DNA of 47,772 nt from positions 1-47,772 of IMG/VR virus record IMGVR_UViG_3300018050_000664. The stretch is one strand, 5' to 3'. The stretch is from a virus (taxonomy: Duplodnaviria; Caudoviricetes). The notes beneath the pieces were generated by a model that worked only from the letters and a program-made list of their open reading frames with translations, did no database searches and had not been told where the DNA came from. This document shows, in pieces, positions 2,082 to 34,698 of this stretch (the first letter of the stretch is position 1; the number at the start of each line of letters is the position of its first letter). Both the position numbers and the translations under genes were made by a program.

Positions 2082-2128
2082 ATCCTTTCCCACCACACAC
2101 ACAACCAACCAACAACCAAACAACCAAC

Positions 2129-10193: not shown

Positions 10194-10491
10194 GGCTTAT
10201 GCGATTGATGGTTCGAATTAAAAGGGACACTAGTTCCTGCGATGCGGAACCGCAACATGAATAGATGATGGCTTCGTAGATAGGCTCAACCCTGCCATGC
10301 ACGGCGAAGTAGCAAAGCACGCCGATGATTCCACCAGCGATGATTCGCTTTACCCACATCCACCAGTGAACGTCTTCATTGGTCAGCAACAGCCTGCATA
10401 GGGCACCAGCCGCCCCAAGCATGGCCACAATCCAGCCACCCTTCTTCAGGTCTTCGGCTGTCTGTAGCAGGTCTGGGTCTGGAGCACTCAT
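10168..10491 (-). CDS. Putative holin (about three TM helices)
   Basis: 107 aa, hydrophobic helices GWIVAMLGAAGAL / IIAGGIIGVLCYFAV / AIIYSCCGSAS, basic C-terminus, end of the late operon. Confidence 0.65.
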   Translation of the reverse strand: MSAPDPDLLQTAEDLKKGGWIVAMLGAAGALCRLLLTNEDVHWWMWVKRIIAGGIIGVLCYFAVHGRVEPIYEAIIYSCCGSASQELVSLLIRTINRISHGKNQRSR

Positions 10492-13400
10492 GCATGAGGA
10501 CCTCCGTATGGTTCAGTCGGGTCGGCTCGGTCAGGCCTGTAATCAGGACGATTTTGATTGAGGTAGTAACTTACAGTTGACCTAGACATGCCTATGGCAC
10601 GTGCGATTTCACGCTGAGAATGTCCAGAGTTCGCCATCTGGATTATCAATTGAACAGTTTCTTGAGGAATCCTTGGGCGACTTGTTTCTGGATTTACCAC
10701 ACGCTCTACATCTGAGTAATGCTCAGGAACCCTTCTTGGAAAATCAACGCCCTGATTTCTCAATCTGGATTCAGACCTACGTATGTGAGGGACTGGCAAT
10801 TCATGCTTCTGAGAGGCCTCCTCAATGGGCATCTGGTTTTGGTGTATGTCGTAGAGTGCCCTTCTCATCTTTCCAACCTTGTCGTAGTTCTTGCCGACGT
10901 TATCTAGCCACCTGAGAAGTTCTGGGTTGGCCTGAGGCCTACCGCCTTCATCGACGCCACCGACCATCATGTTCGGGATGCCAGCGATGACCTTACGCCT
11001 GAACTCATTACGCTGGGCGTCGGTCTGGAACTCTGGGGCGAACCTCATCACAGTGGTGCCGTTTGAGTTCATCAACTTCATGACCTTGGCCATGTTCTCC
11101 GAGGTGGGCTCAAGGCCGAACTGGAGTTTGGTAATCAGTTTCATCGGCAGGCTGGACATGTGTTCTGGAATTTGTTTCCAAGACTTTGCCGCCCCGTTCG
11201 AGATGGTGTGTGAAAATCCGCTGGTCACATCGACCTTATCACCAAGCCTCCTAAAGACCTTGGAACGTTCTCCCCTTCCAATCTCTCCGTCTGCTGGATT
11301 AAACGTGGTCGAATCATCGACGCTGATGTTGGTAGCGTATTTGTATGGCTCGGCTCCGCTGTTCAAGAGTGCCTCTGCCCTAGTGTCCTGAGTGGTCATT
11401 AGGTGATGCTCAAGCCTGACTCCTAGGCCGTATCCAGAGAACACGTAACCTCCCGCTGGCTTCCACTCTGCGATGAACTTCGAGATGTATGGCAACGAGC
11501 CGAGATACTTCGAGTGATACAGCATGGCTTCTCTAGCCTGTGCTGGATTGTCCGTCTCAAGAATCAGTTTGGAAGTCTTGGGGTCGATGATGCGGAACTT
11601 ATCTCCAGCAATCTCAAGCACAGGCCTTTCGAAGGAGTCGGTGGACAGTTTCTGCAACGACTTGATGTTCTGGCCAGTGTAATTGAGTTTGAGGTACCAG
11701 AGTGGCAGGCCGTAATTGCCAACGTAGCCAGAGGCCTTCTGGGATTCGACATACATGTAAACGGATTCTGGGTTGGCGGCTATGCCGTCAATCATCCTCT
11801 GGTAGTCGGTCTTATCACCGCTGACCACGTTTCCGTAGTTGCCCTGCCAGAATCCAGTTCCGCCCTTCCTGTATGCCAATGGCTTTCCGTCCAGTCCTAC
11901 GAGTGCATTGCCTCCGTCTGGTCGGAAGTATTCCGATAGTTGGTGGTTCCACCTGAACAGCCTAGTGCCATCTCCAGCGACGATGGCCGACATGGTTGGC
12001 TCATCTCCAGCGACAGCCCTTTGCAGGCTGGCCGTGGAAATCATGCTACTGTCTCCTAGGCTATGGACTTCTTCGGCTTCAGCCATGGCGTGAACCATGT
12101 GCTGTGCGAGGTTGGCGTTGATTCCGTTATGCTCGAACCTTGAGCCATTCATCATGGGCTCAAGTTCCAAGTCTCCTACGAGCGAAAGCCTTTCGAACAG
12201 GCCACCATGGAGTTGCTTGAACCTCTGCTCTGGAAGAAGCCTGAGTGCCTTGAGCGTCTGTGTGAATTTGCCGTTTTCGATTCCAACCTGAGTAATCGCA
12301 CGCTTTCTGTTGCCGAGAACGAACGAAAGCCTTGGTGCGGAATCCCATCCACGTACGAAGTGATGCCTAGCGTCAGTCATCGCAATCTGCCTGTATCCAG
12401 AATTGGCCGCACGAAGCACAGTTCCCTGAAGGGAGATTGGCCTGTAGATGTCCTCTATGCCGAACGGCTGAGTGGTGATGATGTTCGGGTCGTTCTTGCC
12501 TTCAGGGTTTGATGCGACTGGAAGTTTGGAACGCAGTTCAGCAACCCTGTCTTTTAGTTGACCGATACGCTTCGGAGTGTCGCCTACCTTGTGCTGTACG
12601 GCAAACAAGGCATGGAAATCCATGAGCAACTGAGACAGTCCGTTGTTGGCGGTAGGTGACCTCATCCTGTAACGAATGGTCCTTCCAGACGAAATCTCCT
12701 TATTAAGGTCCCTAAGGTTTACCCTCGTCTGGCGTCCCCTCGTATCTCCATCAAGTTCGTACCTGAAGTGATATGCATCGCTCATCGCATCTGCATCGAA
12801 GAAATCGAATGCGTATGGAGAGATTCCAGTGATGGAAGATTTAGCAATCTGGTCTATCTGGCCGGGACTTTGCCAGAATCCCTCGGTCCTATCCAGCGTG
12901 CTGTTGACGATGAAGTTCGGATTTTCCGACTGCAACCTCTTGAGCATGTTGGAGAACGACTTGAGTGCCTTCAATTTGGACAGGCGTGTTCCCTCGTTGT
13001 TGTAATTGAACGCAGGGTCGTTTCTCATCCATGCGGCGATTGCCTTATCGACACGCTCAATGAGCCTTTCGGCCATCGCATCGAAGTCGAAATTGGGAGG
13101 CCTAGTCGAAGCAAACGCATCGTTCATCTCAGAGGCGGACATGTGTGCCTGCTCATCCATTTGTGCGAACTGCAACATCAGGACGGATGGGGTAAGTCCA
13201 GAATTCTGACCAGCGTGGGTAAGGTCAACGAGTGAGTCGTCGAACTTCCTCATGTCTAGGATTCCGAATTGTCCAGAATTGATTTCGTAAAGAGCGTTCC
13301 TTATCGATTTAAACGCAGCAAAGGTAAGACCACGGACGAGCACGCCATTGTTTTCATCGACGTGGATTCCCTTCTTCCATTCGTAGTAAGGAATTTCAGT

Positions 13401-16400
13401 AACGCCAAGTTGCTCCGCCTGCTCTGGGCTAAGTTTCACTGTGCCAGACGTAGGTGCAAGTGGAAGGTTTTCCACGTTGTCGTTCATCTTGATGAAGTCC
13501 CTATAGATGAGGTGACGCTCGAATTGACTAGTTGCGTCAAAAATCTCTCTGCTCATCAGGTACTGCAACTGCCTGTTGATTGGATTCCCCCTGCCTTTGA
13601 TAACGTTGATTGCCTCCTGTACGGAGGTCAGCGTGTCTTGCATACTTTGCTCCAGTGATTTGATTTCTGCTTCGGCGGCGGTTAAGTCAGAAACGCCCCT
13701 CAGTGCCTCCGCCTGTTCAATCGTATCTGGAAGTGCATAGGCAGGGCTAACTGGGTCGCCGAACGACTTGTACTGGAATGTGTCGGACTGGATTTCCTCA
13801 ATCAGGTAAGTAGGTTCGATTTCTTTTTTGATTCCAGTGACGGCATCAGTGTCATCGAACAATTGCGTTCCTTCGCCGAGAACCTGAGGTCCGTGAGATG
13901 CGAGCATGACGCCAGCGGTAGCCCTGATGTGACCCAACTGGAACGTACCCTGCATGTTGGTGCCGTAGTGGCCAGCGTTACCCATCCTGCCACCATGGTG
14001 CTTATTCCATCCAGACCTGACGACCCTGACACGCTCGGTGGCTAGGATGATGGAGTTGATTCTTTCAGCGTCCTGAGCGTTGGTCGCCTCAAGGGACCTC
14101 TTCTTCAGAATCTGAGTAAACCTATCAAACTCCTTTTCCATTCGGTCAGACCAGAGTTCGGTAAGCCAGATACTGCTGGTATAGGCACCACGATAGGTCG
14201 CATAGCCCTCATGTGCAGAACCATTGGCAGTGATGACGCCTTGTTGCCACAGGTTGCGTTGCGACGGGGTGATTTCTGCTATGCTCTGAACGCCTTGGGT
14301 GTTGTTCGTGTAATTTCCTTCGAGGACTCCAAACTCGTTGTTGTGGGGGAAATCCATGTACCCATTGCTGACGTCAGAGTATCCCCAATTCCATGGGTCT
14401 TTAACTCCGATGTCCCCCAGTGCGGACTTGGTGATACCACTTGCCTCTGCGAGTTTTGCGTCAATCGCCGCCCTGACGATAAGTTCTAATTGTGCTGGCC
14501 TGATGAGCCTGCTCGTACCTCCGACATACTCGGCTGGACTATCTTGAGTGAAGCCCTTCTGTGCCCGATTCATCACTGCGTCGAGTTTGGACTGAAGTGA
14601 ATCTTCCTTGCTGAACATGTTCGGCATTCCGAAGACATCCACAAGTTCATCGAGCGTCTTTCCGATTGCAGATTCTACGGCGTTGGCACGTGCGACACCC
14701 TCTTCTCCAGAGTTCCTCAGTGTATCAATGTGCGTAAGGATAAGCCTGATGTTCTCGGTGTGAATTTCAACGGCCTGCTTTTCCTTGCCTTCGGCATTAA
14801 AGATGAACGGATAAAGGAACTCTCCATTGTTGCCACGCTTTGCTCCGTCCTTTCCAGTAATTCCGAGCAGGTATGAACTGTCCGTAATCGGACCACCTTT
14901 ATCCTGTCTGAAGTTCCTAGGATAGACAGTGTAAAGGAACTCTGCGAGTTCCAGCCTGCTAATCTGCCTGCTGGCGTTGTCGGCCAGAAGGAACATAAGG
15001 CCAGTCATTCTTACCTCATCCTTAGACACGCCGTTTTCCTTGATGAACTTGGCCCACTCAGTTCCAGTAAGTGTGTCTGGGTAGAGGTTCTTGCCAGTCC
15101 TCATCTTACCATAGGCGATGACGGACATCAGTTTGGAGGAGAATTCTACCCTGCCCTGACCGACGCCGAAGTTAATCTTACGCCTAAGCATGCCTTCAAT
15201 TTCCTTTGGCGTATGCGGGTCGCCAATCATCATGTTTGGCCTAGAAACGTTGATAACGTCAGCCTGCAAGGAATCCCTTACGGACAGTTGGGCACTGAGT
15301 GCCTCGGCCTGTTCTTTTGTGAGGGAAAGGTCCAAGTCTCCTACAGTGTATTCCTTTGAATTGGAATAACTCAACTCATAGCCCCTATGGTCCTCACGGA
15401 CAGACCTGATAATCTGCCTCCTCCTCACTGGTGCGTGATGGTCTTTTGTTCCAGCGTCGGTATTGACGGAGAACCTTCCAGTTTCGTTGGTCAGGGTTTC
15501 GATAGCCCTAGCCATCTCGGCCTTACTGGTGCTGATGGTGTACTTGGCCTTTAGTGCTTCAGCCTCGGAAAGCGTCCTTACGGACGTTACCTTTCTGGCG
15601 GTGATTACTCTTCCAGTGCTCTGGTCGATACCGCTTGGGATGTCATAGCCAACCAAGTAACTGACGATTTTCTTACCCTCACGCTTGGGGACAATCGACA
15701 CGTTTGAAGTCTCGGCGTTATCCCATGCGAACTCGGCAAGTTCTGGCCTATTGGGGAACAGGGCTTCGATTACGGCACGCTTGTCGCCGTTCATGGCGAG
15801 TTGGCGTTCCAAGTCTGGCATGAGATATCCGTGGTCTTTGGTTACGGCCATCTGTGCCAACTTCTCGATGTCTCCAGCCAAATGCGGAAGATTCTCGAAG
15901 AGGAAGTCATTGGCCTCCCTCAGTTCTGCCTGATTCTTGCCACGTCCAAGAGTTCCAGTCGAGGAACTCTGATTGGAAGCATCCTTGACGTGACGTTCGA
16001 GTGCTTGGTGGACGGAACCAAATATGCCCCTAGTGCTGATTGCACTGCCACTGCCACCAGCCTCACGTGCCTTCTCTCCCATGAGATGTCTGGCGAACTC
16101 CGTGTCGCCGTCGTAGATGGAGTAGGAAAGCGTAGAACTGAACCTGTTGTAGTCGAAGTGACCACCAGTGTACATGTCCTTGTAGAACCTGAGCACGCCC
16201 TGCTTCTCTAGCAGGAACGTGTAAATGTGAGCCTTGATGTCCTCTGCGGTTGCGTTTGCTGGAATCGTAAGCGTGATGTAGTTGTCGGTAGAAGAGTCCC
16301 TGACAAGTGCCATGGCCGTCATGACATCAATCTGGTTGTTGTGGTCCGCCGTACCGCTTGCAATCCTCTCAAGTGCGTCATGGTAAATCTGACCATACAA

Positions 16401-19400
16401 TCCACTGACGCTCATGAGTTTCTGGTTCACGTCCCTTATCTCATGGACGCCAGACATGAGTTTCCTAGCCTTCTTAAGTGCCTCGATACGCCAGCCACCT
16501 CCGTAGATGTCGGTCAGCCTCGCAATCTTTGCGGCGGCTTCGCTGTTCAGGTGCTTAACGTTCTGACCGAACAACTTTGGGTCGGTGTGGGAAATGAGGC
16601 CGTCCGAGTAAGAGTATCCAAGTGCCTCTTCAAGGTTTACGCCGATTGCATGGGTTCCCCATCCGCTTCGGGTAGAGAGACTGCTGAAGTTCTTGTATCC
16701 GAGGACGTCTCCAGAGATGTTAATAACGATTCGTCCGTCTTCCAGCCTCTTGAATGCGAAGCCCATGGATGCCTTTTCTCCATACGGAGAGATTTCACCA
16801 TGCTTGAAAGTTGCGTCCGAGTATGGAAGTGCACCGCTGAAGTCTCGGCTGATTGGGGACATGAATCCGCCAAGTCCGATAGACCTGATGCCGTAGTCCA
16901 TGAAGTAGCCCTTTTGGCCTTCTAGGCCAGTCTCTCCAGCGGAGATAATCTGACCCTTGCCTAGGAGCCTCCTGCCATAAGTGGCCGTCCTAGCAGGCTG
17001 AAGACCAATCTTTCCACTATTCGCCTTCCTAGCCTCCCTGATGACCATATCGACCAAATGCTTCCTAGCGAAAGCCCTAGACACGGACACGGCCTTCTTC
17101 GGGAGGAAGATGCTTCCGTTCTTCATGGCCACGTCGGCATTTGCGTTGGACTGAAGTAGTTGAATGTCTCCAAGATTAACGTCACTGAGCAACATCTGCC
17201 CGAAGGTCATTCCAGCAACTTCCCTTACGCCAAGATAGACTGGAGAGTTGTTTGCGTAATGGCCAGTTGCGTTGAGGCTATGCTGACGCTTGAGGGGCTC
17301 GCTGTTTCCATCTAGCACCATCTTTCTGGCCGCACCTAGGGCTCCGTTATCAACGGATGCCCATCCTTCTTGGGCAGTCCTGACGGACATCCTGAACAAT
17401 GCCTGAACAGACGGGCCAGAATCCATTCCATTCCTAGTTGGCTCGGTAAGGTCATACCTTTTTTCACCCCTAGTGACTTCATACGCTGGGAACTTGTCCA
17501 TCTCCCTGAGTCCGAGGAGGAACCTAGCAAATCCTAATGCATTGTCTTCACGAAGCAACATGCTGACGGCGTTGACGTATGGCCTTTCCGCTTCTGGGCT
17601 CTTACGCTGGATTGGGTCGGCGATTTTCTCGCTCACTCCCTGCTCCCACTGAATAGCACCACGCTTGATGTACTCACGCATCTGCTCACGCATCTGCTCC
17701 TTGAAGTTTGGAAGGATTGCTTCCATGGCTGGGTAGGTTCCCAGCGTTTCAATTGCCGCCATGCCCTGCATGCCAGCGATGTTAGAATCCAACAGCATGT
17801 TGGAATTAACATCCGAGCACATTTCTGAAATAATCACCCTCTGGGAAGGTTCGAGGGACGTAAGGAAACTTACGATTCTGTTTTCGTACTCTGGGTCAAG
17901 CGTACCGCTTTCTGGAATGTTTACTTCCTTGTTTGCGTCGGCGAGAAGGCTTTCGAATTCGGCCCTCTGCGTGACGCTGAGGATGTCAGACTTCTGGAGT
18001 TTGCCGTCCTTGTAGAATACGGAACTCTTAGCAAAAGCCTTGGATAGAATCGGAACCATTCCCAGTGCATACGTGCTCATGGAAACCCTGACCTGACCTC
18101 CGCCGATTTCCACTGGGTAAACGTTGCTTCCGTTGTAATGGGTTTGCTGAAGCAATTCTATCAGTTCTGGGGAACTTTGAATGGCAAGTGCCAGAGTCTG
18201 CGGAGTAATTCCACGCCTTCCAGCCAACTGATAAAGGGCCGAATGCATGGCATGAACGCCAGTGTAGGCGTACATGTTGTCCTGCCTAAGTGTAATAGTT
18301 ACCTCTACTGGGTCAGTTGGGGTGGCGATTCCGTTCCCGATGAGACTGTTAAGTGCGATGTGGATGTCTCCAGCACGCATGACTGTCCTCATGTTTGGAC
18401 CGCTTTCGGTGGTGATTTCTCCGTTGAAAATGAAAGCCCTCTCTAGGTCGGCAGTGACGCTTGTCATGACTACATCCTTCAACGCCTTGAGGGACTTATC
18501 TACGTTGAACTTAGAACTGTGAGGGCCCTGAGGGTCTGCGATGTAGGGGACAGTTACGACGTCAGTGTGAGCCGTGCTGGCATCCAGAACGTTCTCATTG
18601 ACTGATTCAATTACCAAAGCCCCGTTCTTGTCCAAGTATCCCTTCGCACTGTAAGCCTTTGCCGAGGAGCCTTGGACGTCCGTGTATGCACTCTGGGATG
18701 CGTTGTACGGAACCAGAAGCGTGTTTCTCCTCTGCCAAGCCTCAGTGATTTCGGTCAGGGTTCCATGAAGGCCTTTCAGAATTCCGATAGTCCTTTCCCT
18801 TTCCTTTTCAACCATCTCGAACATCTCCAACTTTCCTTCAGTGCCTTCTGGAATCCTTCCCACGATGTTCTTGGAACGCTCAAACGCTTCGTCGGCGGTA
18901 TTGTTGAGTTGTTTAATCAACATCATGAGCCCTTCGTGTGCCGTATCCAAGGACTTGAGTGCACCCACTCCGTGGCCAAGCATGTTCGTGCCAGTGAAGG
19001 CTTCGTTGTGGTAAATTGCGTAGTACGGATTTCCTAGCCTTGCCCCATCAATCTCAATTCCCATGCCACTGCTGAGTTGGCCATTTTCGTCGTACTGTGG
19101 CTTGTACCAGTTGAGAGGGATTCCCCTTTCGAAATCTGAGGCTGGGCCTCCAGAGTAATTAAATACCTTGTTGGCAGTAAGGCCGATGGTCGGTACGACG
19201 AGGAGGTTCGTTCCGAACATGGCAGAGTCGGCCAAGGAGCCAGAGGTCCTGAAGGCGTCGCCAAGCAGGATGCTTGGTCCAAACGGACCAATCCTTCCCT
19301 TGTTCTGGTCGGTTACGTCGCCTTCGCCTAGAAGGTCCCTGAATGCCTCCATCTGTGGCTGGCTTCCGAGTTCCTCGTTCTTAATAGCCCTGAGTCCGAA

Positions 19401-22400
19401 TGGGTCTAGTTTTACAGTCCTAATCGACTCTGGCTCATACCTAGTTCCAACAAGAAGGGCTTCGTCGATGAGGGAGAACTTCAACTGGTCGTCGATTTCA
19501 TCAATCTTGGACATGAAGTGCTGGAAGAACGGCTTAATCCTTAGGCACCTCTGTGCGTAAAGTTCGTTAAGCCTGTCTATCCTGCGTTCATTAGTGGACC
19601 TGTCTGGGTACTGGTCGAATACGGCGTGCAGTTCGGTGACTGGGATTTCGATGTACTTCTTGTCTTTTGGCCAAGTCCCGTCGGCCTTCTTCTTGGCTAC
19701 CCAAGCGTCCCACAATTCAATTGGGATAAAGTCTGGCCTTACTGGTTCAAAGGTAATTTTACCCCTGACCGCCTTGAACATGCCGAACTTCTGGAACCCG
19801 TCGTCGTCGTATTTTGCAAAAGCATCTGGATTGATTCCGATGGCCTGCAAAGTTCTAGGAAGTTGCTTGTCGTAGTTGTCTCCCCACTTCCTTTTGAGTG
19901 CCTGCGTGAGCATCTCTGGCGTCGGGTTAGAGTCCTGCACCGCTTTGCTAAGTCGCTCACGACCAAACCCAGAACCATACGAAAACTCAGTTGCGACGAA
20001 CTGGTGGTTGATTGCCAAGACATTGGCAAGTTCCTCACGGGTAAAGGTGACACCAGCGAAGTTGCTCTGAATGATGCCAATGTTGGCCATCCTGATGCCG
20101 TCATTGGACACGCCAAACTTGGCTAAGACAGTGCCGATTTCTTCGGCGTTGATGTGTTCTGGGAAGTCTTCCCTGTAAACTGCGTCAACGGCTTCGGATG
20201 GGGTCCTAAGTTCATTCTCTAGCACAACAGTTCCGTCAACAAGCCTTGCAAGTTCCTCCAGAGAAATGGAGTTCTGCATGTTTTCCGAAAGGCCGTTTGC
20301 GATTGCGAGCCTAGTGTCTGAACCATCGCCGAAGTTGGTATTAATCGGAGAGAAGAGGCCACGATTTCCATACCTAGTTTCGACGACGCCCTCATTCCTT
20401 CCCTCGCTCATCTTCTTGTTTTCGATGATGCCAGTCTTGTAAACCAGTCTGGCCTTTCCGTCGATGACCTCCCAGCCCCTAGCGGAGAAGACATACCTAC
20501 CAAGCCTCCTCAGTTCGGCCTGAGTTCCTTCAAGGTAATAAGAAATGGTGGACAGGCGTGCGATACGCCTAAGTGCTTCAAGTCTTCCGTCTCCAGCGGT
20601 GGTGGTGACTTCCTTGCCCATGCCGAGTCCGCCAATCATCATGTTGGACACCCTTGGAACCTGACCACGCTTGAACATCAAGCCTAGGTCGGTAAGGGAG
20701 TTTGCCTTTCCGATGGTGCCGATAGACCCAGAGTATCCATCCGCAGGCCGTTCTGCATTAAGTTGCTCCTGAGTCATCTTGCGACGCTCGGCAGTCTCAT
20801 AAGCCTGCTTCTCGTTGGTCTGGCCGTAGTACTGCATCAGGCCAAGCGATTCAGCCAAATCCCTAATCTTGTTGGCGTTGAACGCAGGCCCGTTGGTATT
20901 GCGATACTTGAACGAGTCAGTGACCCTGACCACATCAAGCATGAGGTCGAGATACCTAGCATGGTGCGAAAGGTATTCAAAGGCTAGGGACGAAACATCC
21001 CTGCCCATGGTGGAATGAAGGGATGCGATGATTCCGTTACGCTTGGTAAGTAGGCTCTCCGATGGGCCGACAAGAAGGGTGCGTGCGGTATCTGGATGCA
21101 TGAGTCCAGACTTCACTGAATCGCTTAGGACCTGAGCCTGCTTGCTGAGTTCGAGCAGTCCCCTGCTCATGTCGGCAATCTTGCCATACTCCTTTGTCCC
21201 AGCACCGAATTCGAATGCGAGCCTTTCAAAGGACATGGCATCCGCCTCGAACAGCCTGATGGCGTTCGGAAGTGCAAGTTCGCCTACCCTCTGTGCGAGA
21301 GGGCTGTCTAGGAGTTCTACGAGATGCTTTTCAATCTCCTGCTCGCTCAGTTCAAGGGCTTTTGCGATTTCGGCGTCAGCGACGCCAGCCTCCATGGCCT
21401 TCGCCACTTCAAGGTTGATGGCTTCCCCGCCCTTGCCCTTCGCTTCGATAAGAGGGCCGTAGAACGGACCGCCAAGACCCATCATGTTTCGGATGAGGTA
21501 CTTGTAGAGGCCACGCTTGTACTGGGCACTTTCAGAGATGTCAGCGGTCTGCGTCCAAGCCTCAGCCCTCTGGATGGCGTGCTGGATTTCATGGATTAGG
21601 GAACTGAGCACGCTCTCGGAGCGAACGTTATCTGGGATGATGACGCTATCGGCGTCGAGGCCGTTCGCTTCACGTACGGCACCAGAAATAAGCCTGTCGA
21701 TACCAAGAACGATGTGGTCCCTGTTCGGGAAGTACCCAGCACCAAAGCCTTCGACGAAGGAAACCCTGACGTTTCTAAGGCGTGGGTAGTGCTTGTAGAG
21801 CAGGTCGTGCTTAAGGATGTCCCCGAGTTCAACGCTTGGGATTTTCCTGATAGCGTTTCCGATGGCCACTTCGTCCTTGTTGAGGGAGGCTTGCTGGTAC
21901 TCCTTGATGAAGTTTTCGAACCCAGAAGAAGGTGAGTCTAGGTCGTTGATGAACGGAAGCAGATGAATCTTTTCGTCAACAGCACCGAGCAGAAGGCTTG
22001 CACCCTTGTCGCTGAATTCAAACGCCTTGTACATCTTTCCGTTCTCGGCGAAGACCATCCTGAGCATGCCAGCGGACTCCATCATGCGTTCGTTGGCGTC
22101 AAGGGAAGCCCTGAATCCACCGACCATCATGTTGGTGCTACCAATCTCAATGACTGGGCTGGCTGGTTTGGACTTGTCGAATCCAGATTCTACCAGCATC
22201 TCGTTAATCTTGCTAGAGACGTCAGCCATGCTCTTCCTGAAGGCATCGGCCTTTCCAGCGGCGGTTCCGTCGGCGTCCATGTAGGCCTTTGAGAAACTAC
22301 TGTAGCCAGCATCGACGATGGTAGGAACGCCCATGCGTTCGGAAAGGAGAAGGATTCTGGCCACGCCTTCATTTACCGAGCCAGCACCAAGGTACTTGGC

Positions 22401-25400
22401 ATCGTAGAATCCATTAGAAATCATCAGGCTAGCACTTTCCTGCCTGTCTGCGTCACCCATGACCCTAAGGATGTCGTCTTCCATGAGACGCACGGCGTTC
22501 TTTCCGAATTCCGTGCCCATAATCATCTCTTCTCCTACGAGAATCTGAGACAGTGCCGTGGCGTACTGGAAGATTGCGTAGTCACGTGGCGTCGTAATTC
22601 CGTCCGTGAAAATGCTTGTAGCGATACGCCTGACAGCCCTGTAATCCTCAAATGGGTTGGTTCCATCACCAGCCTTTTGCATCAGGGCTGCAAACTTTTG
22701 TGGGTATTCCTTCCCGTACATGTATGCAAGCAGTTTGGAGAACTCTCCGTTCTTGACGTGCTTGTACAGGCTTCCGTTGGAAATCTGTCCGTTGCCTTCC
22801 CCGTGAAGGTAGGGCGAAAGGCCGTTAGCGGCCATGATAGCGTTGATAGAAACCTGAATTCCACGCCTAGAGGCCTTCATGCCTGAATACGGAGTGTTAG
22901 ACCTAGACGCTAGGGTGTCGGTAGTCGCCTTGGCTCCAGCGAGAGAAGAGTATCCGCCAGCGGCAGTTACGTAAGTTACAGTAGGCTGAATGTTCTTTTG
23001 CTCGCCCTTGGTCGGGTCCATGTTTCCGCCAATCGAGAAGATTGCAAAGTCCTCAACGCCCATGAGGGCCCAAGCGGTCTGTGCGGACGCATTCGGTTCT
23101 CCAATGAAAACGACTTCGCCAGCAGAACGTGGGGAAACGTTTTCAACCATGCCATACTCAATTGCGTCTAAGTTTGAGCGTTCCTCCATGCCAGAGAGCC
23201 TGCCTCCGTCCTTTCTGGTCCTGTTTCCCATCTTGGTAACGTGATGGAATCCAGAGAATCCATTCATCATTACCTTGTCATAGGCCTTCCTGTAGGTGGT
23301 TATTCCTTTGCCGAGATTGATGTTGCTCGGTACGTTTCTAGACAGGACCTGCTCTAGTGCCGAAGAAACCTTAAGTACGCTTGGGTTTACGTAGAGGAAC
23401 GTAGAGCCCATGGCCTGAATAACATAGGACGATTTGTTCTTTCCGCTGAACGAATTGATTATCCCGCTGAAGTGATTCGTTATTAAGGCGTGCTCCTGCT
23501 TGGTAAAGCCATGCGGATTAGTCCTTCTTCCGCTGACACCAAACATCATCTCTACTAGGCCAATCCTTTTTGTCGTAGCATCGTACTTCCAGTAATCAGT
23601 GAGAACATCTTCGATGTTACTGGAAGCCTCGTTTTCTAGGACATCCCTAAGCGTGGCGTCTGGGTTCGTCTTCTTCAGTTCTTCAAGTTCTCCAGTGAAC
23701 CTCCTAAGTGAGGCCATTACGTTGGTGTTTCCGTAATACCTCAAGTCTCCATCGACATAGGCTAGCCTATTCGAGTCAACGGCCCCATCGCTAAAAGAGA
23801 TAAGTTCCTGAAGTTTAACCTGAAGCATGGCCTTCAGGCTCTTTTCGACGTTCTTTGCCATGCCACCCTCAATCATGGACACTGGCAAAGTCAGGATGGT
23901 GCGACTATTCCTAGAGGAGGTTACTCCCTCTGAGTATCCACCATGAAGGACGGCCATTGGGCTCGCTACGATTTCGAAGTCCCCAATGAAAGGATAGTCG
24001 GCAATCAGCCTGCTGTCCTTCTTGAAGATGTCCTTCAGTGTAATTGACGCCTGCTGGTAGAACCAGTTTTCGTTTCGAGCCTGAGTGTTGCTGTTGAACT
24101 TGAAATTCTTGGCATCGGCCACGAAATTGTCCCAAGCGTCGTTTCCATCAAGTCGAACGTCCGCTTCGTAGTATCCGCCCTTGCCGACCATCATGTTGGC
24201 CGAAAGGCTAGTAACGTCAGCCAAAGAGGTCTTGATTTCCAAGTCGCCTTCTGGGGCTGGACCCTGCTCGGTTCCTACAAATCCACGGCCCTCCTCTTGA
24301 GGGATGCTCTTCATGTGACGCTCTGCGTAGGACTGAGCCTTGGCCAGAGTCTTGAACGAGCCTACGAGGGCACCGAACGGACTGAACAGGGATAGTTTTC
24401 CTCCGTTCTTCCTAATTTCGTAGCCAATGTGGTTAGACCAATAGGAACCATCCTGACCGACTGGGTATTCCACGAATCCACCAACCATCATGTTACGCCT
24501 TACGCCTTCGTATGCGTTGACGTGGTTGTATGGCAGGTTGCCTAGGTCGGTTCCAAATGTCTCTTGGAACACCGAGGTCTGCTTCTGCATGTTGGCGAGA
24601 AGTTCAAACCTGAGGGAGTGGAAAGGGTAGTTAGGGCCGTCGGCGTTGCCAGCATAGCCAGACTTAGGTGCGTTGATGAAGGATTCATCCATACGCTTCC
24701 TGCCGCCGAAAGTTTCATACATGACATCCCTGACAGCCTCGGCGTTGTCGCCAAACTCTGGCTTGAACCTCTCAACGGACGTCTTCCTGCTGGAGGAGTC
24801 CTGAGAGAGGTTGTGCATGTAGTCCGTGAAGGTCCTAGTGTAGTGGCCAAAGTCGGTGAAAAGAGAGCGTACGTCAGCCCTCTGCCACAGTTTCATCCTT
24901 CGACGATTAAGAACACGGACGTCAACGGCATGAACAGTTACATGGCCTTTTGGCTTTTTCAGCGGGTTGCCGTACTCGTCATACTTATCGAACCTAAGTT
25001 CGATTGCGTATGGGGAGAAATGCCTGTTCGTAACTGGGACGTCGCTACCAGTCAGACGCCTGACCTGACCATCAATAACTACCTGATGAGTGCGTCCAAG
25101 ATACTGGGAGATAAAGGTGTTGAAGACTGGCTTTCCAGCACGGGTATTCCTTACGACTTCGGTCAGTCCCCTCAGTTCATCAACTTCAGACCTGCTGTAA
25201 GCACCAGAATTAATGACCGAATCCCACTGTTTCTTATTGAGCGTGGTCAGGTCGAGGGTCCTGTTTCCGTTCTGGTCCACGTTAAACCTAGGACGCTCGC
25301 TTTCTGGGAGTGCGTCTAAGGCGTCTGCAATCTTTTCGGTATTGCGGGTGATGATTTCGTCAACCTCCGCCTTCCCCTTCATGACCTTTCCGCCCTTTAC

Positions 25401-27983
25401 TGCGTTGGCAAACCTCTCCTTGCCAGTCTGCTTGAAGTAGGCGTCAGCCCTTTCTGGGCTCATCAGCGATACGTTTACGTCGCCATGACGCATGGCCTGA
25501 GCCATGATACGCTGAGTCCAAGCATCGAGCATTGGGATGTGAAGATACCTTCCATCCTCCCACATGAACGCTTGGAAGTTCGGGTTTGGGCTATTTGGAT
25601 TAGATGGCCTGATTAGAACTCCAGCCTCTTCAATCTTTGTGACAAGACGCTGAGTGTGGAGCATGTAAAGGTTTTCAAGTCCAGCACGCAGGCTCCTGCT
25701 TTCTGGGTTCCTAAGGAAGAAGTCTGGGCTCTTATTCAGTATGCTGTTCGAAAAGGAGTATGCAAAAGTCTCCTGAACTAGGCTTTCTAGGTCTGGGTTA
25801 TTCTTGAGCACTTCTGGAATCATCCTTCCATCGTCCGTCCTAGATGGCCTGTCAAAAATTGCTGGCTCACCCGCCTGAGCAGTCCTCATGTCGTTCAGGA
25901 TGCTACGCATTCCCTTCAGGGCTCTTTCAAACTTAACAGCCCTCACCTGCTCTTCGCTCATTCCAGCAAAGTACTGTGAGTCGGTTTCCAACTTAAACTT
26001 GCTCCTGTAATCGGCGTAAAGATGGGCCATCGCCTCGTCGCTAATTACGCCCTTATCCTTACCTTCTCCGAAGAATTGCCTTACGATTTCTACGGAATCG
26101 GCATCATGCTTAAAGATGTTGTTGAGGTGTCCGTGGGCCAGTTCGTGTGCAATCGTTTCTGGCGTAGCAGATTTGGAGTTAATCCACTGGATACGCATCT
26201 TGGCACCATTCTTTTCGACCTCGAGTTCTGAGCCTAGGCCGTTTTCGGCCATCTTAGAAATCGCATCCTGTGGCCCGAACTCCTTGATGAGTTCTTCCCT
26301 AGTTCCGAACCTGTACTGGAACTCTGGGTCAGCAGTGAAAGACTGGGAGAAGACAGCCCTGACAGTAGCACTAATCCTATTGTCTCCCATGGCATCTACG
26401 GCCTTGAGAGTAGCCCTGATGTGGCGTGCGTTATCAGGGCTCTTGGAATCAATCATGTTAATCTGAGAACTGTCGAAGTTCTCAATCATGTAGAGATGTC
26501 CCTGATTCTGGCTGTAAACGTTATGGACGTGCCTGAGGCTTCCAGAAAGGCCACCCCAAGCGAAGCCGATGCCTACGCCACTGGCCGCACCAGCACCACG
26601 TGCCGACAGGTATCCAAGCGTGCCCATGTAGGCAGCGTCGCCGACAGCCCTTTTCAGGACTGGGACGGCCATGGATGCTGGCCAACCGACAACGACATTG
26701 GTGAACTTGGCTACGGCAAGTGCTTCAGCACTCATCGGAACCCTGCTACCATTCTTGGTGGCAAGCCGTTCAAGCATGCCCATGCCCATGTTCTGGGATT
26801 TAACCTGCACTACGCCGTTGGCGTAATCTACGATTTCATTTCCGAGCACGCTGGCGTACTCGGTGATTGGCTTTACACCAAGCGAGAAAATCGTTGAACG
26901 AATGGGCGAAAGGGTGAGCCCTTCGCCGACTGCCCTTTCGCCAGCGTCGGCAAGAGCAGTTTGGGCGGCGTTACGGAGGACAGTTGGGTTCGAGCCAGCG
27001 GTTTCAGCAACCGCAGTTGAACCTTGGGCAATCTTTTGTTGTACATACGAGAAAGGCTTTGCGACAACATCTGCGGTTCCAGCGATAGTGGAGCCAGTAA
27101 CACGCATGGAAAAGTCCTTCATGCGTTTTGCAACTGTGTCGAAATTATCTCTCCAAGCAGAGCCAAGTGAACCGAGAGCCTCGGAGGCGGCGGCGGTTGC
27201 TTCCTCCTGTGCAATCTGTGCCATCACGCCAGTCTTGTAGGACTTTACGGAGTCCCTGATTGCCCTTTTTCCAGTGTTCCTTAGTGGGCTAAGTAGCAGG
27301 TGCGGGGTTTCTAGTCCGATGTAGGAAAGTGCATTCGCAAGTTTAGGGTCAATGAGGTTCTTTACGAAGCCCTTATAGTCTTCTGGAACCCAGTCTTCTA
27401 GGACAGTTGTCTTCCCTTCCTCAAGTTCAGCGGAACGATTATTGAACCACCTAGCCTCATTGAACTGGTCAATTTGGTCTTCGATAGTTCCAGTTCCATT
27501 GATGTAGTCCTTGAACCTGAAAAGAAAAGAATCTGGGTCTTCGGACTGTGCTAGTATTCCATAAAGGTCACGCACATCCCTCGCCATGCCATCGACCATG
27601 GAGAGGGGGACCTTTGATGGATTCCTTGCAATACCGCTGGCGATGTCAAACGGGACCTTTGCTACGATGTTGGCCATCTGCTTGACGGCTTCCATCGTGA
27701 AATTGTTTCGGTCCTTATTGGCTATCCTGAACAGTTCGTAGAGCCTTCTGCCCTCTGGGGTCGTCTTATCAAAGGTCTTGGTCCTGTTGGCCGCAAAGTA
27801 CTCCCAGACTTCATCTGGAGTTGGCTCATTCCCGCCCTCGACGCCATCAGAAATCCCCTGCTCCTCTGGGGTGAGATTGTAGGAAAGCCTTAGGCCTTCG
27901 GTCCTAGCCTCATTAACCGCTTGGTCAATCAGTGCTGGGTCAATCTGCTCTGGTTCGTTAGGGCCATCCTGTTCGTTAATCAT
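10488..27983 (-). CDS. Giant (5831 aa) internal virion / large polyvalent protein with zincin metallopeptidase, LPD23-like and HTH modules
   Basis: Uninterrupted 17.5-kb ORF; HELAH (aa 613) and HEIQH (aa 2131) zincin motifs; LGDILKHDLLYKHYP.L LPD23-like motif; GHIR...IEEIQSD motif; C-terminal SQREIARAIGMSRSTVSYYL HTH; position after podovirus tail genes. Confidence 0.8.
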   Translation of the reverse strand: MINEQDGPNEPEQIDPALIDQAVNEARTEGLRLSYNLTPEEQGISDGVEGGNEPTPDEVWEYFAANRTKTFDKTTPEGRRLYELFRIANKDRNNFTMEAVKQMANIVAKVPFDIASGIARNPSKVPLSMVDGMARDVRDLYGILAQSEDPDSFLFRFKDYINGTGTIEDQIDQFNEARWFNNRSAELEEGKTTVLEDWVPEDYKGFVKNLIDPKLANALSYIGLETPHLLLSPLRNTGKRAIRDSVKSYKTGVMAQIAQEEATAAASEALGSLGSAWRDNFDTVAKRMKDFSMRVTGSTIAGTADVVAKPFSYVQQKIAQGSTAVAETAGSNPTVLRNAAQTALADAGERAVGEGLTLSPIRSTIFSLGVKPITEYASVLGNEIVDYANGVVQVKSQNMGMGMLERLATKNGSRVPMSAEALAVAKFTNVVVGWPASMAVPVLKRAVGDAAYMGTLGYLSARGAGAASGVGIGFAWGGLSGSLRHVHNVYSQNQGHLYMIENFDSSQINMIDSKSPDNARHIRATLKAVDAMGDNRISATVRAVFSQSFTADPEFQYRFGTREELIKEFGPQDAISKMAENGLGSELEVEKNGAKMRIQWINSKSATPETIAHELAHGHLNNIFKHDADSVEIVRQFFGEGKDKGVISDEAMAHLYADYRSKFKLETDSQYFAGMSEEQVRAVKFERALKGMRSILNDMRTAQAGEPAIFDRPSRTDDGRMIPEVLKNNPDLESLVQETFAYSFSNSILNKSPDFFLRNPESRSLRAGLENLYMLHTQRLVTKIEEAGVLIRPSNPNSPNPNFQAFMWEDGRYLHIPMLDAWTQRIMAQAMRHGDVNVSLMSPERADAYFKQTGKERFANAVKGGKVMKGKAEVDEIITRNTEKIADALDALPESERPRFNVDQNGNRTLDLTTLNKKQWDSVINSGAYSRSEVDELRGLTEVVRNTRAGKPVFNTFISQYLGRTHQVVIDGQVRRLTGSDVPVTNRHFSPYAIELRFDKYDEYGNPLKKPKGHVTVHAVDVRVLNRRRMKLWQRADVRSLFTDFGHYTRTFTDYMHNLSQDSSSRKTSVERFKPEFGDNAEAVRDVMYETFGGRKRMDESFINAPKSGYAGNADGPNYPFHSLRFELLANMQKQTSVFQETFGTDLGNLPYNHVNAYEGVRRNMMVGGFVEYPVGQDGSYWSNHIGYEIRKNGGKLSLFSPFGALVGSFKTLAKAQSYAERHMKSIPQEEGRGFVGTEQGPAPEGDLEIKTSLADVTSLSANMMVGKGGYYEADVRLDGNDAWDNFVADAKNFKFNSNTQARNENWFYQQASITLKDIFKKDSRLIADYPFIGDFEIVASPMAVLHGGYSEGVTSSRNSRTILTLPVSMIEGGMAKNVEKSLKAMLQVKLQELISFSDGAVDSNRLAYVDGDLRYYGNTNVMASLRRFTGELEELKKTNPDATLRDVLENEASSNIEDVLTDYWKYDATTKRIGLVEMMFGVSGRRTNPHGFTKQEHALITNHFSGIINSFSGKNKSSYVIQAMGSTFLYVNPSVLKVSSALEQVLSRNVPSNINLGKGITTYRKAYDKVMMNGFSGFHHVTKMGNRTRKDGGRLSGMEERSNLDAIEYGMVENVSPRSAGEVVFIGEPNASAQTAWALMGVEDFAIFSIGGNMDPTKGEQKNIQPTVTYVTAAGGYSSLAGAKATTDTLASRSNTPYSGMKASRRGIQVSINAIMAANGLSPYLHGEGNGQISNGSLYKHVKNGEFSKLLAYMYGKEYPQKFAALMQKAGDGTNPFEDYRAVRRIATSIFTDGITTPRDYAIFQYATALSQILVGEEMIMGTEFGKNAVRLMEDDILRVMGDADRQESASLMISNGFYDAKYLGAGSVNEGVARILLLSERMGVPTIVDAGYSSFSKAYMDADGTAAGKADAFRKSMADVSSKINEMLVESGFDKSKPASPVIEIGSTNMMVGGFRASLDANERMMESAGMLRMVFAENGKMYKAFEFSDKGASLLLGAVDEKIHLLPFINDLDSPSSGFENFIKEYQQASLNKDEVAIGNAIRKIPSVELGDILKHDLLYKHYPRLRNVRVSFVEGFGAGYFPNRDHIVLGIDRLISGAVREANGLDADSVIIPDNVRSESVLSSLIHEIQHAIQRAEAWTQTADISESAQYKRGLYKYLIRNMMGLGGPFYGPLIEAKGKGGEAINLEVAKAMEAGVADAEIAKALELSEQEIEKHLVELLDSPLAQRVGELALPNAIRLFEADAMSFERLAFEFGAGTKEYGKIADMSRGLLELSKQAQVLSDSVKSGLMHPDTARTLLVGPSESLLTKRNGIIASLHSTMGRDVSSLAFEYLSHHARYLDLMLDVVRVTDSFKYRNTNGPAFNANKIRDLAESLGLMQYYGQTNEKQAYETAERRKMTQEQLNAERPADGYSGSIGTIGKANSLTDLGLMFKRGQVPRVSNMMIGGLGMGKEVTTTAGDGRLEALRRIARLSTISYYLEGTQAELRRLGRYVFSARGWEVIDGKARLVYKTGIIENKKMSEGRNEGVVETRYGNRGLFSPINTNFGDGSDTRLAIANGLSENMQNSISLEELARLVDGTVVLENELRTPSEAVDAVYREDFPEHINAEEIGTVLAKFGVSNDGIRMANIGIIQSNFAGVTFTREELANVLAINHQFVATEFSYGSGFGRERLSKAVQDSNPTPEMLTQALKRKWGDNYDKQLPRTLQAIGINPDAFAKYDDDGFQKFGMFKAVRGKITFEPVRPDFIPIELWDAWVAKKKADGTWPKDKKYIEIPVTELHAVFDQYPDRSTNERRIDRLNELYAQRCLRIKPFFQHFMSKIDEIDDQLKFSLIDEALLVGTRYEPESIRTVKLDPFGLRAIKNEELGSQPQMEAFRDLLGEGDVTDQNKGRIGPFGPSILLGDAFRTSGSLADSAMFGTNLLVVPTIGLTANKVFNYSGGPASDFERGIPLNWYKPQYDENGQLSSGMGIEIDGARLGNPYYAIYHNEAFTGTNMLGHGVGALKSLDTAHEGLMMLIKQLNNTADEAFERSKNIVGRIPEGTEGKLEMFEMVEKERERTIGILKGLHGTLTEITEAWQRRNTLLVPYNASQSAYTDVQGSSAKAYSAKGYLDKNGALVIESVNENVLDASTAHTDVVTVPYIADPQGPHSSKFNVDKSLKALKDVVMTSVTADLERAFIFNGEITTESGPNMRTVMRAGDIHIALNSLIGNGIATPTDPVEVTITLRQDNMYAYTGVHAMHSALYQLAGRRGITPQTLALAIQSSPELIELLQQTHYNGSNVYPVEIGGGQVRVSMSTYALGMVPILSKAFAKSSVFYKDGKLQKSDILSVTQRAEFESLLADANKEVNIPESGTLDPEYENRIVSFLTSLEPSQRVIISEMCSDVNSNMLLDSNIAGMQGMAAIETLGTYPAMEAILPNFKEQMREQMREYIKRGAIQWEQGVSEKIADPIQRKSPEAERPYVNAVSMLLREDNALGFARFLLGLREMDKFPAYEVTRGEKRYDLTEPTRNGMDSGPSVQALFRMSVRTAQEGWASVDNGALGAARKMVLDGNSEPLKRQHSLNATGHYANNSPVYLGVREVAGMTFGQMLLSDVNLGDIQLLQSNANADVAMKNGSIFLPKKAVSVSRAFARKHLVDMVIREARKANSGKIGLQPARTATYGRRLLGKGQIISAGETGLEGQKGYFMDYGIRSIGLGGFMSPISRDFSGALPYSDATFKHGEISPYGEKASMGFAFKRLEDGRIVINISGDVLGYKNFSSLSTRSGWGTHAIGVNLEEALGYSYSDGLISHTDPKLFGQNVKHLNSEAAAKIARLTDIYGGGWRIEALKKARKLMSGVHEIRDVNQKLMSVSGLYGQIYHDALERIASGTADHNNQIDVMTAMALVRDSSTDNYITLTIPANATAEDIKAHIYTFLLEKQGVLRFYKDMYTGGHFDYNRFSSTLSYSIYDGDTEFARHLMGEKAREAGGSGSAISTRGIFGSVHQALERHVKDASNQSSSTGTLGRGKNQAELREANDFLFENLPHLAGDIEKLAQMAVTKDHGYLMPDLERQLAMNGDKRAVIEALFPNRPELAEFAWDNAETSNVSIVPKREGKKIVSYLVGYDIPSGIDQSTGRVITARKVTSVRTLSEAEALKAKYTISTSKAEMARAIETLTNETGRFSVNTDAGTKDHHAPVRRRQIIRSVREDHRGYELSYSNSKEYTVGDLDLSLTKEQAEALSAQLSVRDSLQADVINVSRPNMMIGDPHTPKEIEGMLRRKINFGVGQGRVEFSSKLMSVIAYGKMRTGKNLYPDTLTGTEWAKFIKENGVSKDEVRMTGLMFLLADNASRQISRLELAEFLYTVYPRNFRQDKGGPITDSSYLLGITGKDGAKRGNNGEFLYPFIFNAEGKEKQAVEIHTENIRLILTHIDTLRNSGEEGVARANAVESAIGKTLDELVDVFGMPNMFSKEDSLQSKLDAVMNRAQKGFTQDSPAEYVGGTSRLIRPAQLELIVRAAIDAKLAEASGITKSALGDIGVKDPWNWGYSDVSNGYMDFPHNNEFGVLEGNYTNNTQGVQSIAEITPSQRNLWQQGVITANGSAHEGYATYRGAYTSSIWLTELWSDRMEKEFDRFTQILKKRSLEATNAQDAERINSIILATERVRVVRSGWNKHHGGRMGNAGHYGTNMQGTFQLGHIRATAGVMLASHGPQVLGEGTQLFDDTDAVTGIKKEIEPTYLIEEIQSDTFQYKSFGDPVSPAYALPDTIEQAEALRGVSDLTAAEAEIKSLEQSMQDTLTSVQEAINVIKGRGNPINRQLQYLMSREIFDATSQFERHLIYRDFIKMNDNVENLPLAPTSGTVKLSPEQAEQLGVTEIPYYEWKKGIHVDENNGVLVRGLTFAAFKSIRNALYEINSGQFGILDMRKFDDSLVDLTHAGQNSGLTPSVLMLQFAQMDEQAHMSASEMNDAFASTRPPNFDFDAMAERLIERVDKAIAAWMRNDPAFNYNNEGTRLSKLKALKSFSNMLKRLQSENPNFIVNSTLDRTEGFWQSPGQIDQIAKSSITGISPYAFDFFDADAMSDAYHFRYELDGDTRGRQTRVNLRDLNKEISSGRTIRYRMRSPTANNGLSQLLMDFHALFAVQHKVGDTPKRIGQLKDRVAELRSKLPVASNPEGKNDPNIITTQPFGIEDIYRPISLQGTVLRAANSGYRQIAMTDARHHFVRGWDSAPRLSFVLGNRKRAITQVGIENGKFTQTLKALRLLPEQRFKQLHGGLFERLSLVGDLELEPMMNGSRFEHNGINANLAQHMVHAMAEAEEVHSLGDSSMISTASLQRAVAGDEPTMSAIVAGDGTRLFRWNHQLSEYFRPDGGNALVGLDGKPLAYRKGGTGFWQGNYGNVVSGDKTDYQRMIDGIAANPESVYMYVESQKASGYVGNYGLPLWYLKLNYTGQNIKSLQKLSTDSFERPVLEIAGDKFRIIDPKTSKLILETDNPAQAREAMLYHSKYLGSLPYISKFIAEWKPAGGYVFSGYGLGVRLEHHLMTTQDTRAEALLNSGAEPYKYATNISVDDSTTFNPADGEIGRGERSKVFRRLGDKVDVTSGFSHTISNGAAKSWKQIPEHMSSLPMKLITKLQFGLEPTSENMAKVMKLMNSNGTTVMRFAPEFQTDAQRNEFRRKVIAGIPNMMVGGVDEGGRPQANPELLRWLDNVGKNYDKVGKMRRALYDIHQNQMPIEEASQKHELPVPHIRRSESRLRNQGVDFPRRVPEHYSDVERVVNPETSRPRIPQETVQLIIQMANSGHSQREIARAIGMSRSTVSYYLNQNRPDYRPDRADPTEPYGGPHA

Positions 27984-28933
27984 TGGGGCTGGGTGTCGAT
28001 TACGCCTTTTTGGAAGTATGAGTTGGCTTTGGCCTTCGGCGTGGAGTCAATGAGCATCAGTCCATTGGCTTCGCCTACCTCCATCGCCTTACGCATCGCA
28101 CTTTCCCTTACGTTTCTGAGGATAGCAAGTTCGTTTCCACCAAGCCTAGTAATCGCAGACGACGCCCTCTGGGGCACCATGTGGGAAGCGATAGCCATGT
28201 CATTGTCGGACACGGAGCCCCCCATGCCCTTCATGTCTTTCATGAGGGCTAGGTAGTCTGTCTTGATGCTGGATTCCAGCATCCTAGCCATGGCGGCGTC
28301 TTCGGATGGGTCTAGGCTGCTTAGGTATGTATTCTTTCGATACAGGGACTCCAATTGGGCTAGTTCCCTGTTCATCTTGGACAACTTGGACAGGGTTCCC
28401 CTGTAGTTCCTAGCCGCCTCGTCGCCACCCTTGAACGGGATGGAACCGACTCCAGCCTTCCTAGCCATCATGTGGGCTGGGACGGACATTCCTTTGTAGT
28501 TGTAAATACCCTTTGGGCCAAAAGTAAATTTCCTTTTGATGACTTTGCCCTGCTCATCGACGTCATCCAACTCTAGGGCCTCGTCCATCTGGAAGATGGC
28601 ACCGCCCTTGCTCTTCATAAGGGCTTCGGCGGCTCCGTAGTCTCCAAGGCCAGCGTAGAACTGTGCGTCCTTCATCCTAGGGTCTGGAGCCTTTTGCTCC
28701 TGCTGTGGCATCATAGAAACCCTAGACCTAGCCTGTTGGAGTTGCTTGGTCTGCGAGTTCTTGCCCACGTGTGCCCAAGGGCTGAATCCCATGGATACGT
28801 TTTGCTGTGCCTCGGTCATTTGGTCGAAGCCAGTCGGTGCCATAGACTGCTGTCTTACCATGCTGGCCATGTCGGAGCCATAATCTGGCTCCTGTTGCTC
28901 TGCTGGCTCCTGCTGGTATTCTTCGTCAATCAT
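27980..28933 (-). CDS. Putative internal virion/ejection protein
   Basis: Helical, Gln/Met-rich, GGSVSDND..IA motif; ATGA-coupled to the giant gene. Confidence 0.55.
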   Translation of the reverse strand: MIDEEYQQEPAEQQEPDYGSDMASMVRQQSMAPTGFDQMTEAQQNVSMGFSPWAHVGKNSQTKQLQQARSRVSMMPQQEQKAPDPRMKDAQFYAGLGDYGAAEALMKSKGGAIFQMDEALELDDVDEQGKVIKRKFTFGPKGIYNYKGMSVPAHMMARKAGVGSIPFKGGDEAARNYRGTLSKLSKMNRELAQLESLYRKNTYLSSLDPSEDAAMARMLESSIKTDYLALMKDMKGMGGSVSDNDMAIASHMVPQRASSAITRLGGNELAILRNVRESAMRKAMEVGEANGLMLIDSTPKAKANSYFQKGVIDTQPQ

Positions 28934-29775: not shown

Positions 29776-29779
29776 AAAT

Positions 29780-31819: not shown

Positions 31820-31820
31820 T

Positions 31821-32432: not shown

Positions 32433-32434
32433 AA

Positions 32435-34695: not shown

Positions 34696-34698
34696 AGA

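Follow-up and report, generated by a model that had tools for sequence, protein, structure and literature searches.

The analysed stretch, termed the window, is the complete virus record IMGVR_UViG_3300018050_000664 (47,772 bases), in which an open reading frame (ORF) on the minus strand (10488-27983) encodes a giant protein of 5831 amino acids (AA). This protein carries six copies of a short tag, N-M-M-[VI]-G, at its module joints, and two zincin domains, zincin-1 (HELAH) and zincin-2 (HEIQH). Zincin-1 probably recognises and cuts the tags, which would split the giant protein into separate modules; cleavage is a candidate activity, and the link between tag and zincin was obtained for the Lys tags of distant relatives only.

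Tag copies and their conservation

The tripeptide NMM was found seven times in the giant protein (aa 1164, 1263, 1951, 2166, 2447, 4250 and 5671) and nowhere else in the window when all six frames were checked. For NMM[VI]G, six copies were counted versus 0.003 expected from composition, and the six copies given in a preliminary description made from the sequence alone were confirmed with their coordinates and the lengths of the units between them (Table 1). The same pattern topped an unbiased scan for gapped patterns (log10 p -12.1; best of one shuffle -5.5). The scan was insensitive, since degenerate tags in six family members escaped it; it returned no clear tag in F116 gp59/gp60, StenR_269 and Dartukuta gp57.

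Twelve full or near-full homologues, which are 21-71% identical, were aligned. Eleven of them have a tag-like peptide at sites 1 and 3-6, site 2 being more degenerate, and the twelfth is without site 6, its end being cut or shifted. The Asn of tag 1 is invariant (187/187 homologues), and tag 2 is the least conserved copy, degenerate or unplaceable in several relatives. Within the family of this phage, the six tag sites and the layout of the protein are fixed. Taken as a protein-level tag at module joints, as the preliminary description had proposed, the six copies are supported. The weaker seventh copy which it had listed, NMMGLGG at aa 2166, was rejected: relatives read NVMG, NITG, NISG or KISG at this place, and the peptide lies in a low-confidence insert within zincin-2.

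In one family member (L040:8030-8130, record G006), the giant gene consists of two ORFs of 2367 aa and 3289 aa with an ATGA overlap, about 55 aa upstream of tag 4. A one-base loss seems to underlie this, through an assembly error or else as a genuine split of the gene with translational coupling.

Concerted change of the central tag residue

Across 41 family members, the central residue of the tag depends on the clade: one has Met, another Ser, and a third a mixture of Gln and Met. In 37 of the 41 proteins, the same central residue is used at every well-anchored site covered; well-anchored sites are 1 and 3-6, chosen within ±4 residues by a permissive score. The tree behind this survey was built by a quick method, and FastTree was used for the co-variation analysis below.

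When the Met clade (17 proteins) was compared with the Ser clade (18 proteins), 358 columns were conserved to at least 80% in each, and 68 of them differ between the clades. Exactly six of the 358 switch from Met to Ser, namely aa 1166, 1265, 1953, 2449, 4252 and 5673, which are the tag positions. The switch is a single event in the tree, yet it involves six sites spread over 4,500 residues. The DNA flanking the tags is unrelated and the codons vary, Ser being encoded by both TCN and AGC. Since six distant sites switch with unrelated flanks and mixed Ser codons, a common reader at the protein level is indicated.

Mixed Gln/Met tags are recorded for P0018, P0019, P0020, P0022 and L059. Two of these, P0022 and L059, are near-identical and differ at tag 1 (NFQLSG vs NMMVSG); it is possible from their sequences that this pair represents a tag switch caught midway.

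Lineage-specific tags and module exchange in distant relatives

By profile search, 79 representatives were obtained which have the N-terminal core ending at tag 1 together with the small domain that follows it. Here tag 1 reads NFKP, NFQP, NFMP, NWSP, NMKV etc., and the distant relatives overall use F-K-P, F-Q-P, F-M-P or F-S-P. The central residue X of tag 1 recurs further downstream in the same protein: in 49 distant homologues, [FYWM]-X-P with the protein's own X was found 95 times (15.4 expected) and with another X 70 times (62 expected). For a second set of 106 proteins, the corresponding counts were 349 (33.5 expected) and 188 (154 expected). The second set originally comprised 109 proteins, three of which were dropped for lack of a region; P0194, which has no zincin, was also dropped. 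P0081 was reassigned from Leu to Met according to its downstream copies. On a tree of 187 sequences, 20 changes of X are required.

ART-PolyVal and GNAT modules are carried by the distant relatives. Homology breakpoints in 105 relatives cluster at the tags: a tag is no more than 15 aa away from 40% of alignment starts and 44% of alignment ends (7% at random), and at least three alignment ends lie within 10 aa for 306/321 tags versus 34% of random positions, counts which are pseudo-replicated and to which tag similarity itself contributes by drawing alignment ends. Sequence comparison thereby supports an exchange of modules at the tags among distant relatives. The tag travelling with swapped modules, which the preliminary description had proposed to look for, was found there; the six sites of the phage's own family stay fixed.

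The domain of about 60 aa following tag 1 gave 238 profile matches in 152 proteins, and distant relatives often have a second copy. Late copies again sit behind a tag. Possibly it acts as a handle at the terminus during ejection or packaging.

Zincin domains and predicted structures

The region aa 480-1300 was modelled with AlphaFold2 (AF2) from 49 sequences with a predicted local distance difference test (pLDDT) value of 79. Zincin-1 presents the hallmarks of metallopeptidase (MPTase) domains, i.e., a three-strand sheet, a helix bearing HExxH and a downstream Glu, with His613, Glu614, His617 and Glu738 conserved; His613 is present in 187/187, Glu614 in 186/187 and Glu738 in 187/187 homologues. 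No sequence match was found for zincin-1 among solved structures. In the same model, tag 1 forms a short low-confidence coil flanked by confident domains; the low-confidence stretch around tag 2 is long.

The region aa 1900-2520 was modelled from 13 sequences with a mean pLDDT of 61. Tags 3 and 4 were placed in coil with pLDDT < 50, outside the folded module containing zincin-2; the placement of tag 4 is weak because the final 110 residues of this model are all poorly predicted. Tags 1-4 are predicted to sit in linkers. The preliminary description had held that motifs inside folded domains would speak against a tag function, and none of these four modelled copies has such a position.

Both HExxH sites named in the preliminary description, at aa 613 and aa 2131, were recovered. 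Zincin-2 is intact in 41/41 family members, and its module is missing from most shorter relatives. By sequence comparison, residues ~2037-2162 are similar to the zincin region in two proteins that bear LPD23. Pfam LPD23 (PF18838) itself gave no match at E ≤ 1, either for the window protein or for 12 segments homologous to it. Of the LPD23-zincin module claimed earlier, the zincin resemblance therefore stands and the Pfam assignment does not. When the zincin-2 model was compared by fold with PDB representatives, generic helical bundles were the only matches. A scan of 19 other window genes for HExxH and HExxxH was negative, and library searches gave no match to a protease family. A complex prediction of zincin-1 with Zn and a 31-aa peptide around tag 3 scored 0.00 and was counted neither for nor against binding.

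In the Ser clade (L044, L060-L064, P0021-P0037 in part), zincin-1 has the form HExxxH throughout, except for HDVMGH in P0027. A tie between the HExxxH form and Ser tags was considered and rejected; it is true for one clade, and five other Ser-tag proteins have HExxH. For this comparison, P0046, P0070, P0075, P0076 and P0088, in which the anchor falls on a late tag, and N-terminal fragments were left out.

Co-variation of the tag with a residue of zincin-1

Columns co-varying with the central tag residue were sought in the N-terminal ~790 aa, the part around zincin-1 and tag 1, using 693 columns and 21 hand-drawn clades. The column of aa 583 ranked top without reaching significance (family-wise p 0.41). 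It precedes an edge strand (aa 584-591), followed in the AF2 model by the hairpin leading to the HExxH helix of zincin-1. By eye, aa 583 was Asp or Glu in 15/17 proteins with a Lys tag and in 1/65 others.

The expectation of an acidic aa 583 with Lys tags was fixed before the result for the second set was known. In that set, aa 583 is Glu in 33/33 Lys-tag proteins and acidic in 0/72 others; Ala occurs in 30/31 Met-tag and Lys in 30/35 Gln-tag proteins. Pooled, the residue is acidic in 48/50 Lys-tag proteins versus 1/137 others. A tree correction was applied because the sequences of the second set are kin of the first. With 37 clades, the combination of Lys tag and acidic aa 583 was top of 2,877 features (r 0.81) with a family-wise p of 0.005-0.007, or about 0.03 when allowing for four states. 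Among independent pairs, 5.5 of 6 were concordant and none opposite, the next other column reaching 3.0 (2,500 features were tested in this way).

The link between Lys tags and an acidic aa 583 indicates zincin-1 as the tag reader. Where the preliminary description had left open whether HELAH or HEIQH is the processing domain, the sequence evidence favours the former, in zincin-1, over the latter, in zincin-2.

Proposed processing and alternative explanations

We infer the following course, in which virion location, ejection, catalysis and scissile bond are all conditional. The giant protein, judged by the position of its gene, would be packed in the head and then ejected. Zincin-1 would bind every tag along its edge strand and cut ahead of the first hydrophobic residue, either within the head or following entry. 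Pieces of about 130, 11, 75, 55, 199, 158 and 18 kDa would be released. The concerted change of the tags would follow because an altered protease cleft obliges all tags to follow. From the pattern of the thermolysin sequence, aa 583 is presumably equivalent to thermolysin Asn112. In a simulation study of thermolysin, Asn112 touches the backbone of P1' and P2' and Asn111 the P2' side chain, and cutting before hydrophobic residues is preferred (PMC12316308). This geometry would place the cut at the Asn/Met bond (Asn|Met-Met-Val-Gly), with the variable residue at P2'.

Several points weigh against cutting by zincin-1. Co-variation demonstrates binding, not cutting, and the N4 virion RNA polymerase (vRNAP), which bears a domain of this kind, is packaged without being cut (PMC5512222). 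The second set is related to the first, and with only six independent pairs the sign test gives p 0.03-0.06. The all-state column scans fell short of significance (family-wise p 0.41 and 0.63), no column of the scanned region was a significant partner of Met, Gln or Ser tags, and a link of Gln/Ser tags to a basic residue was tried and failed on independent pairs (p 0.63). Furthermore, the Lys/Glu link stems from relatives which are ~17-23% identical over the aligned N-terminal segment, and in the clade of this phage Leu, Met, Lys, Arg or Asn stands at aa 583, the tag being constantly Met. Four proteins have mixed Gln/Met tags, and P0027 keeps its tags with HDVMGH. The pseudo-replication of the breakpoint counts belongs here as well.

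The main rival is binding without cutting, because N4 vRNAP is packaged whole with its domain of this kind. Zincin-1 would hold the tags in its cleft, and the tags would serve to tether the modules or to set their order while an intact protein is packaged, unfolded or ejected. The concerted change and the link to aa 583 would be explained equally well; N4 vRNAP, ArdC and TraC1 bear MPTases yet travel full-length (PMC5512222), and N4 vRNAP has been modelled as beads on a string for ejection (PMC13434306). Nevertheless, the catalytic Glu is kept in 186/187 homologues, and its loss would presumably be likelier in a cleft that only binds; we consider this alternative unlikely, but the one to be taken most seriously.

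Somewhat less probable is a different reader or cutter, e.g., zincin-2, the portal, the ejection channel or another phage protein, or a host protease, the link to aa 583 being indirect. The free variation of aa 583 in the clade of this phage and the intactness of zincin-2 in all 41 family members would fit such a reader, and the co-variation scan was confined to the region around zincin-1 and tag 1. However, most shorter relatives have tags and zincin-1 and no second HExxH, the sole column with a significant link to the tag is found at the edge strand of zincin-1, and no other window gene has an NMM tag or a zinc motif.

That the tag is a mere structural cap or recombination scar at module ends, with no reader, is improbable: module swaps do coincide with tags, but the flanking DNA is unrelated and codons vary, and six distant sites changing together as well as the link to a zincin residue require a common reader. 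Internal translation starts, which the preliminary description had raised since AAC ATG ATG occurs at 6/6 window copies, were rejected as having next to no plausibility, because the G content upstream of the tags is unlike that of starts (mean of 3.8 G in 15 nucleotides, compared with 4.1 at ordinary in-frame ATGs and 1.3 at 28 assumed starts; p 0.0005 vs starts, genuine starts in this phage having G-poor, A/C-rich upstream sequence) and many Ser-clade copies (NLSVAG, SFSVGG) lack ATG, AAC moreover being the codon for 222/317 Asn residues anyway.

Comparison with known systems

During head maturation of T4 (gp21) and phiKZ-like phages, a short recurring motif directs the cutting of virion proteins, which is performed by a separate serine protease acting on many proteins after Glu. 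In contrast, the tag described here occurs in a single protein, whose own built-in zincin is the candidate enzyme. Of the traits of self-cleaving polyproteins, a recurrent motif at domain joints in linkers was found (tags 1-4 modelled). A tie of the motif to a built-in protease reached significance with the Lys tags of distant relatives and failed to do so with Met, Gln or Ser tags.

Iyer et al. 2017 (PMC5512222) proposed that phage polyvalent proteins process themselves by means of their MPTase domains. By its sequence, the protein studied here resembles these polyvalent proteins in size, gene setting and MPTase architecture. It is a giant multi-module protein with two interspersed MPTase domains, encoded beside head genes (5831 aa, downstream of terminase, scaffold and capsid); the HExxxH variant occurs in the Ser clade, and ART-PolyVal and GNAT in relatives. 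Several named effector domains are thus seen in distant relatives, whereas in the window protein a helix-turn-helix (HTH) module is the only one named. It differs in that most of its modules match no library family. No junction tag or cut site is named in the parts of the main text of Iyer et al. covered here (PMC5512222). Neither a publication on such a tag nor one on a link between tag and protease residue was found among titles and openings of abstracts, a coverage which omits most subscription journals.

For phage phi24B, gp47 is described as a polyvalent protein present in virions and a proposed ejection protein, and a tag is not mentioned in the accessible part of this account (10.64898/2026.04.10.717836). 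The vRNAP of coliphage N4 is likewise giant and ejected, and it has flexible linkers and an HExxH domain (PMC13434306, PMC5512222), but it differs from the window protein, in which no RNA polymerase domain was detected in library searches.

P0011 (annotated as Synergistaceae) and P0012, which combine LPD23, MPTase and ART-PolyVal, share the zincin-2 region. They repeat a tag of their own, E-x-[YF]-x-Q (14 copies) or E-x-[FY]-N-Q (10 copies), which by eye precedes repeated modules. The tag spelling, the many repeated modules and the Pfam LPD23 match set them apart from the window protein. Gluzincins of the thermolysin type are similar in having HExxH with a downstream Glu, cutting before hydrophobic residues and contacting P1'/P2' by the edge strand, but they are secreted and of broad specificity (PMC12316308).

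The giant gene and its surroundings

Library searches (Pfam, PHROGs, NCBIfam) identified terminase, scaffold and SU10-type capsid genes upstream of the giant gene, and a podovirus-like layout of the phage is inferred. In the giant protein, the C-terminal HTH was the sole module named by these libraries. The strings of the GVSxD/EEIQSD module listed in the preliminary description are present, without a library name being obtained for them. RNA polymerase domains were not matched in the giant protein by these libraries, and a strongly hydrophobic membrane helix was not found (best 19-residue mean 1.31). When compared with predicted structures, the N-terminal model matched annotated large polyvalent proteins with E-values of 1e-20 to 1e-10 and low TM-scores. 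Relatives of the N-terminal core were not found among the annotated phages or prokaryotic genomes searched.

The HTH tail is present in some family members only, most being without it. In five distant relatives the HTH module is internal and ends just upstream of a tag. Weak matches of the tail include NCBIfam HTH_Cbp1, far under the cut-off.

Between the capsid region and the giant gene (window 27980-36376), none of the nine genes gave a confident library match, and they may encode tail and small ejection proteins. The genes starting at 2129 and 2555 have a near-identical A/C-rich leader and share the initial 12 coding bases ATGAGTAACATC (window 2104-2140 and 2530-2566). A Shine-Dalgarno-like sequence is absent before starts in this phage.

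Table 1. Features of the giant protein and its gene, with coordinates in the window.
Feature	Position (aa)	Window coordinates	Strand	Basis or remark
Giant polyvalent-type protein gene		10488..27983	-	final large gene, closing the virion-gene cluster of an uncultured tailed phage
Residue 583 (Leu here)	583	26235..26237	-	directly before the Gly opening predicted edge strand 584-591; acidic in Lys-tag relatives
Zincin-1 domain	~556-750	25734..26318	-	AF2: three-strand sheet, HELAH helix, third-ligand Glu738; pLDDT mostly 83-95
HELAH zinc motif	613-617	26133..26147	-	sequence
Tag 1, NMMVGG	1164	24477..24494	-	closes the conserved N-terminal core; pLDDT < 50 at centre
Small beta-beta-beta-alpha domain after tag 1	~1170-1226	24306..24476	-	model and profile matches
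Tag 2, NMMVGK	1263	24180..24197	-	low-confidence region of the model
Tag 3, NMMVGG	1951	22116..22133	-	coil, pLDDT < 50
Folded module with zincin-2	~1962-2410	20754..22100	-	AF2 model; kin of the zincin in LPD23-bearing proteins
Zincin-2 HEIQH	2131	21579-21593	-	sequence
NMMGLG within zincin-2 insert	2166	21471..21488	-	alignment and AF2 model
Tag 4, NMMIGG	2447	20628..20645	-	coil, pLDDT < 50, near the poorly predicted model end
Tag 5, NMMIGD	4250	15219..15236	-	sequence position and homologue alignment
Tag 6, NMMVGG	5671	10956..10973	-	sequence position and homologue alignment
C-terminal HTH module	~5697-5817	10533..10895	-	library match

Implications

Beyond this phage, a wide group of phage ejection polyproteins might possess a private and evolvable code of protease and tag, a generalisation for which we see the case as evenly balanced. 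The zincin would cut before hydrophobic-X-[PVIL], the edge-strand residue would help to set X (Glu for Lys), and new modules flanked by tags would be freed in the host. If true, this would constitute a plug-in delivery grammar and supply the missing cut-site rule for self-processing by MPTases. These results offer a named catalytic domain, a prediction of the bond that it cuts and a swappable residue pair (Lys of the tag, Glu of the zincin), which would turn the standing hypothesis of self-processing into a precise and cheap experiment. The tag would also provide a means, from sequence only, to divide phage proteins of thousands of residues into their working modules.

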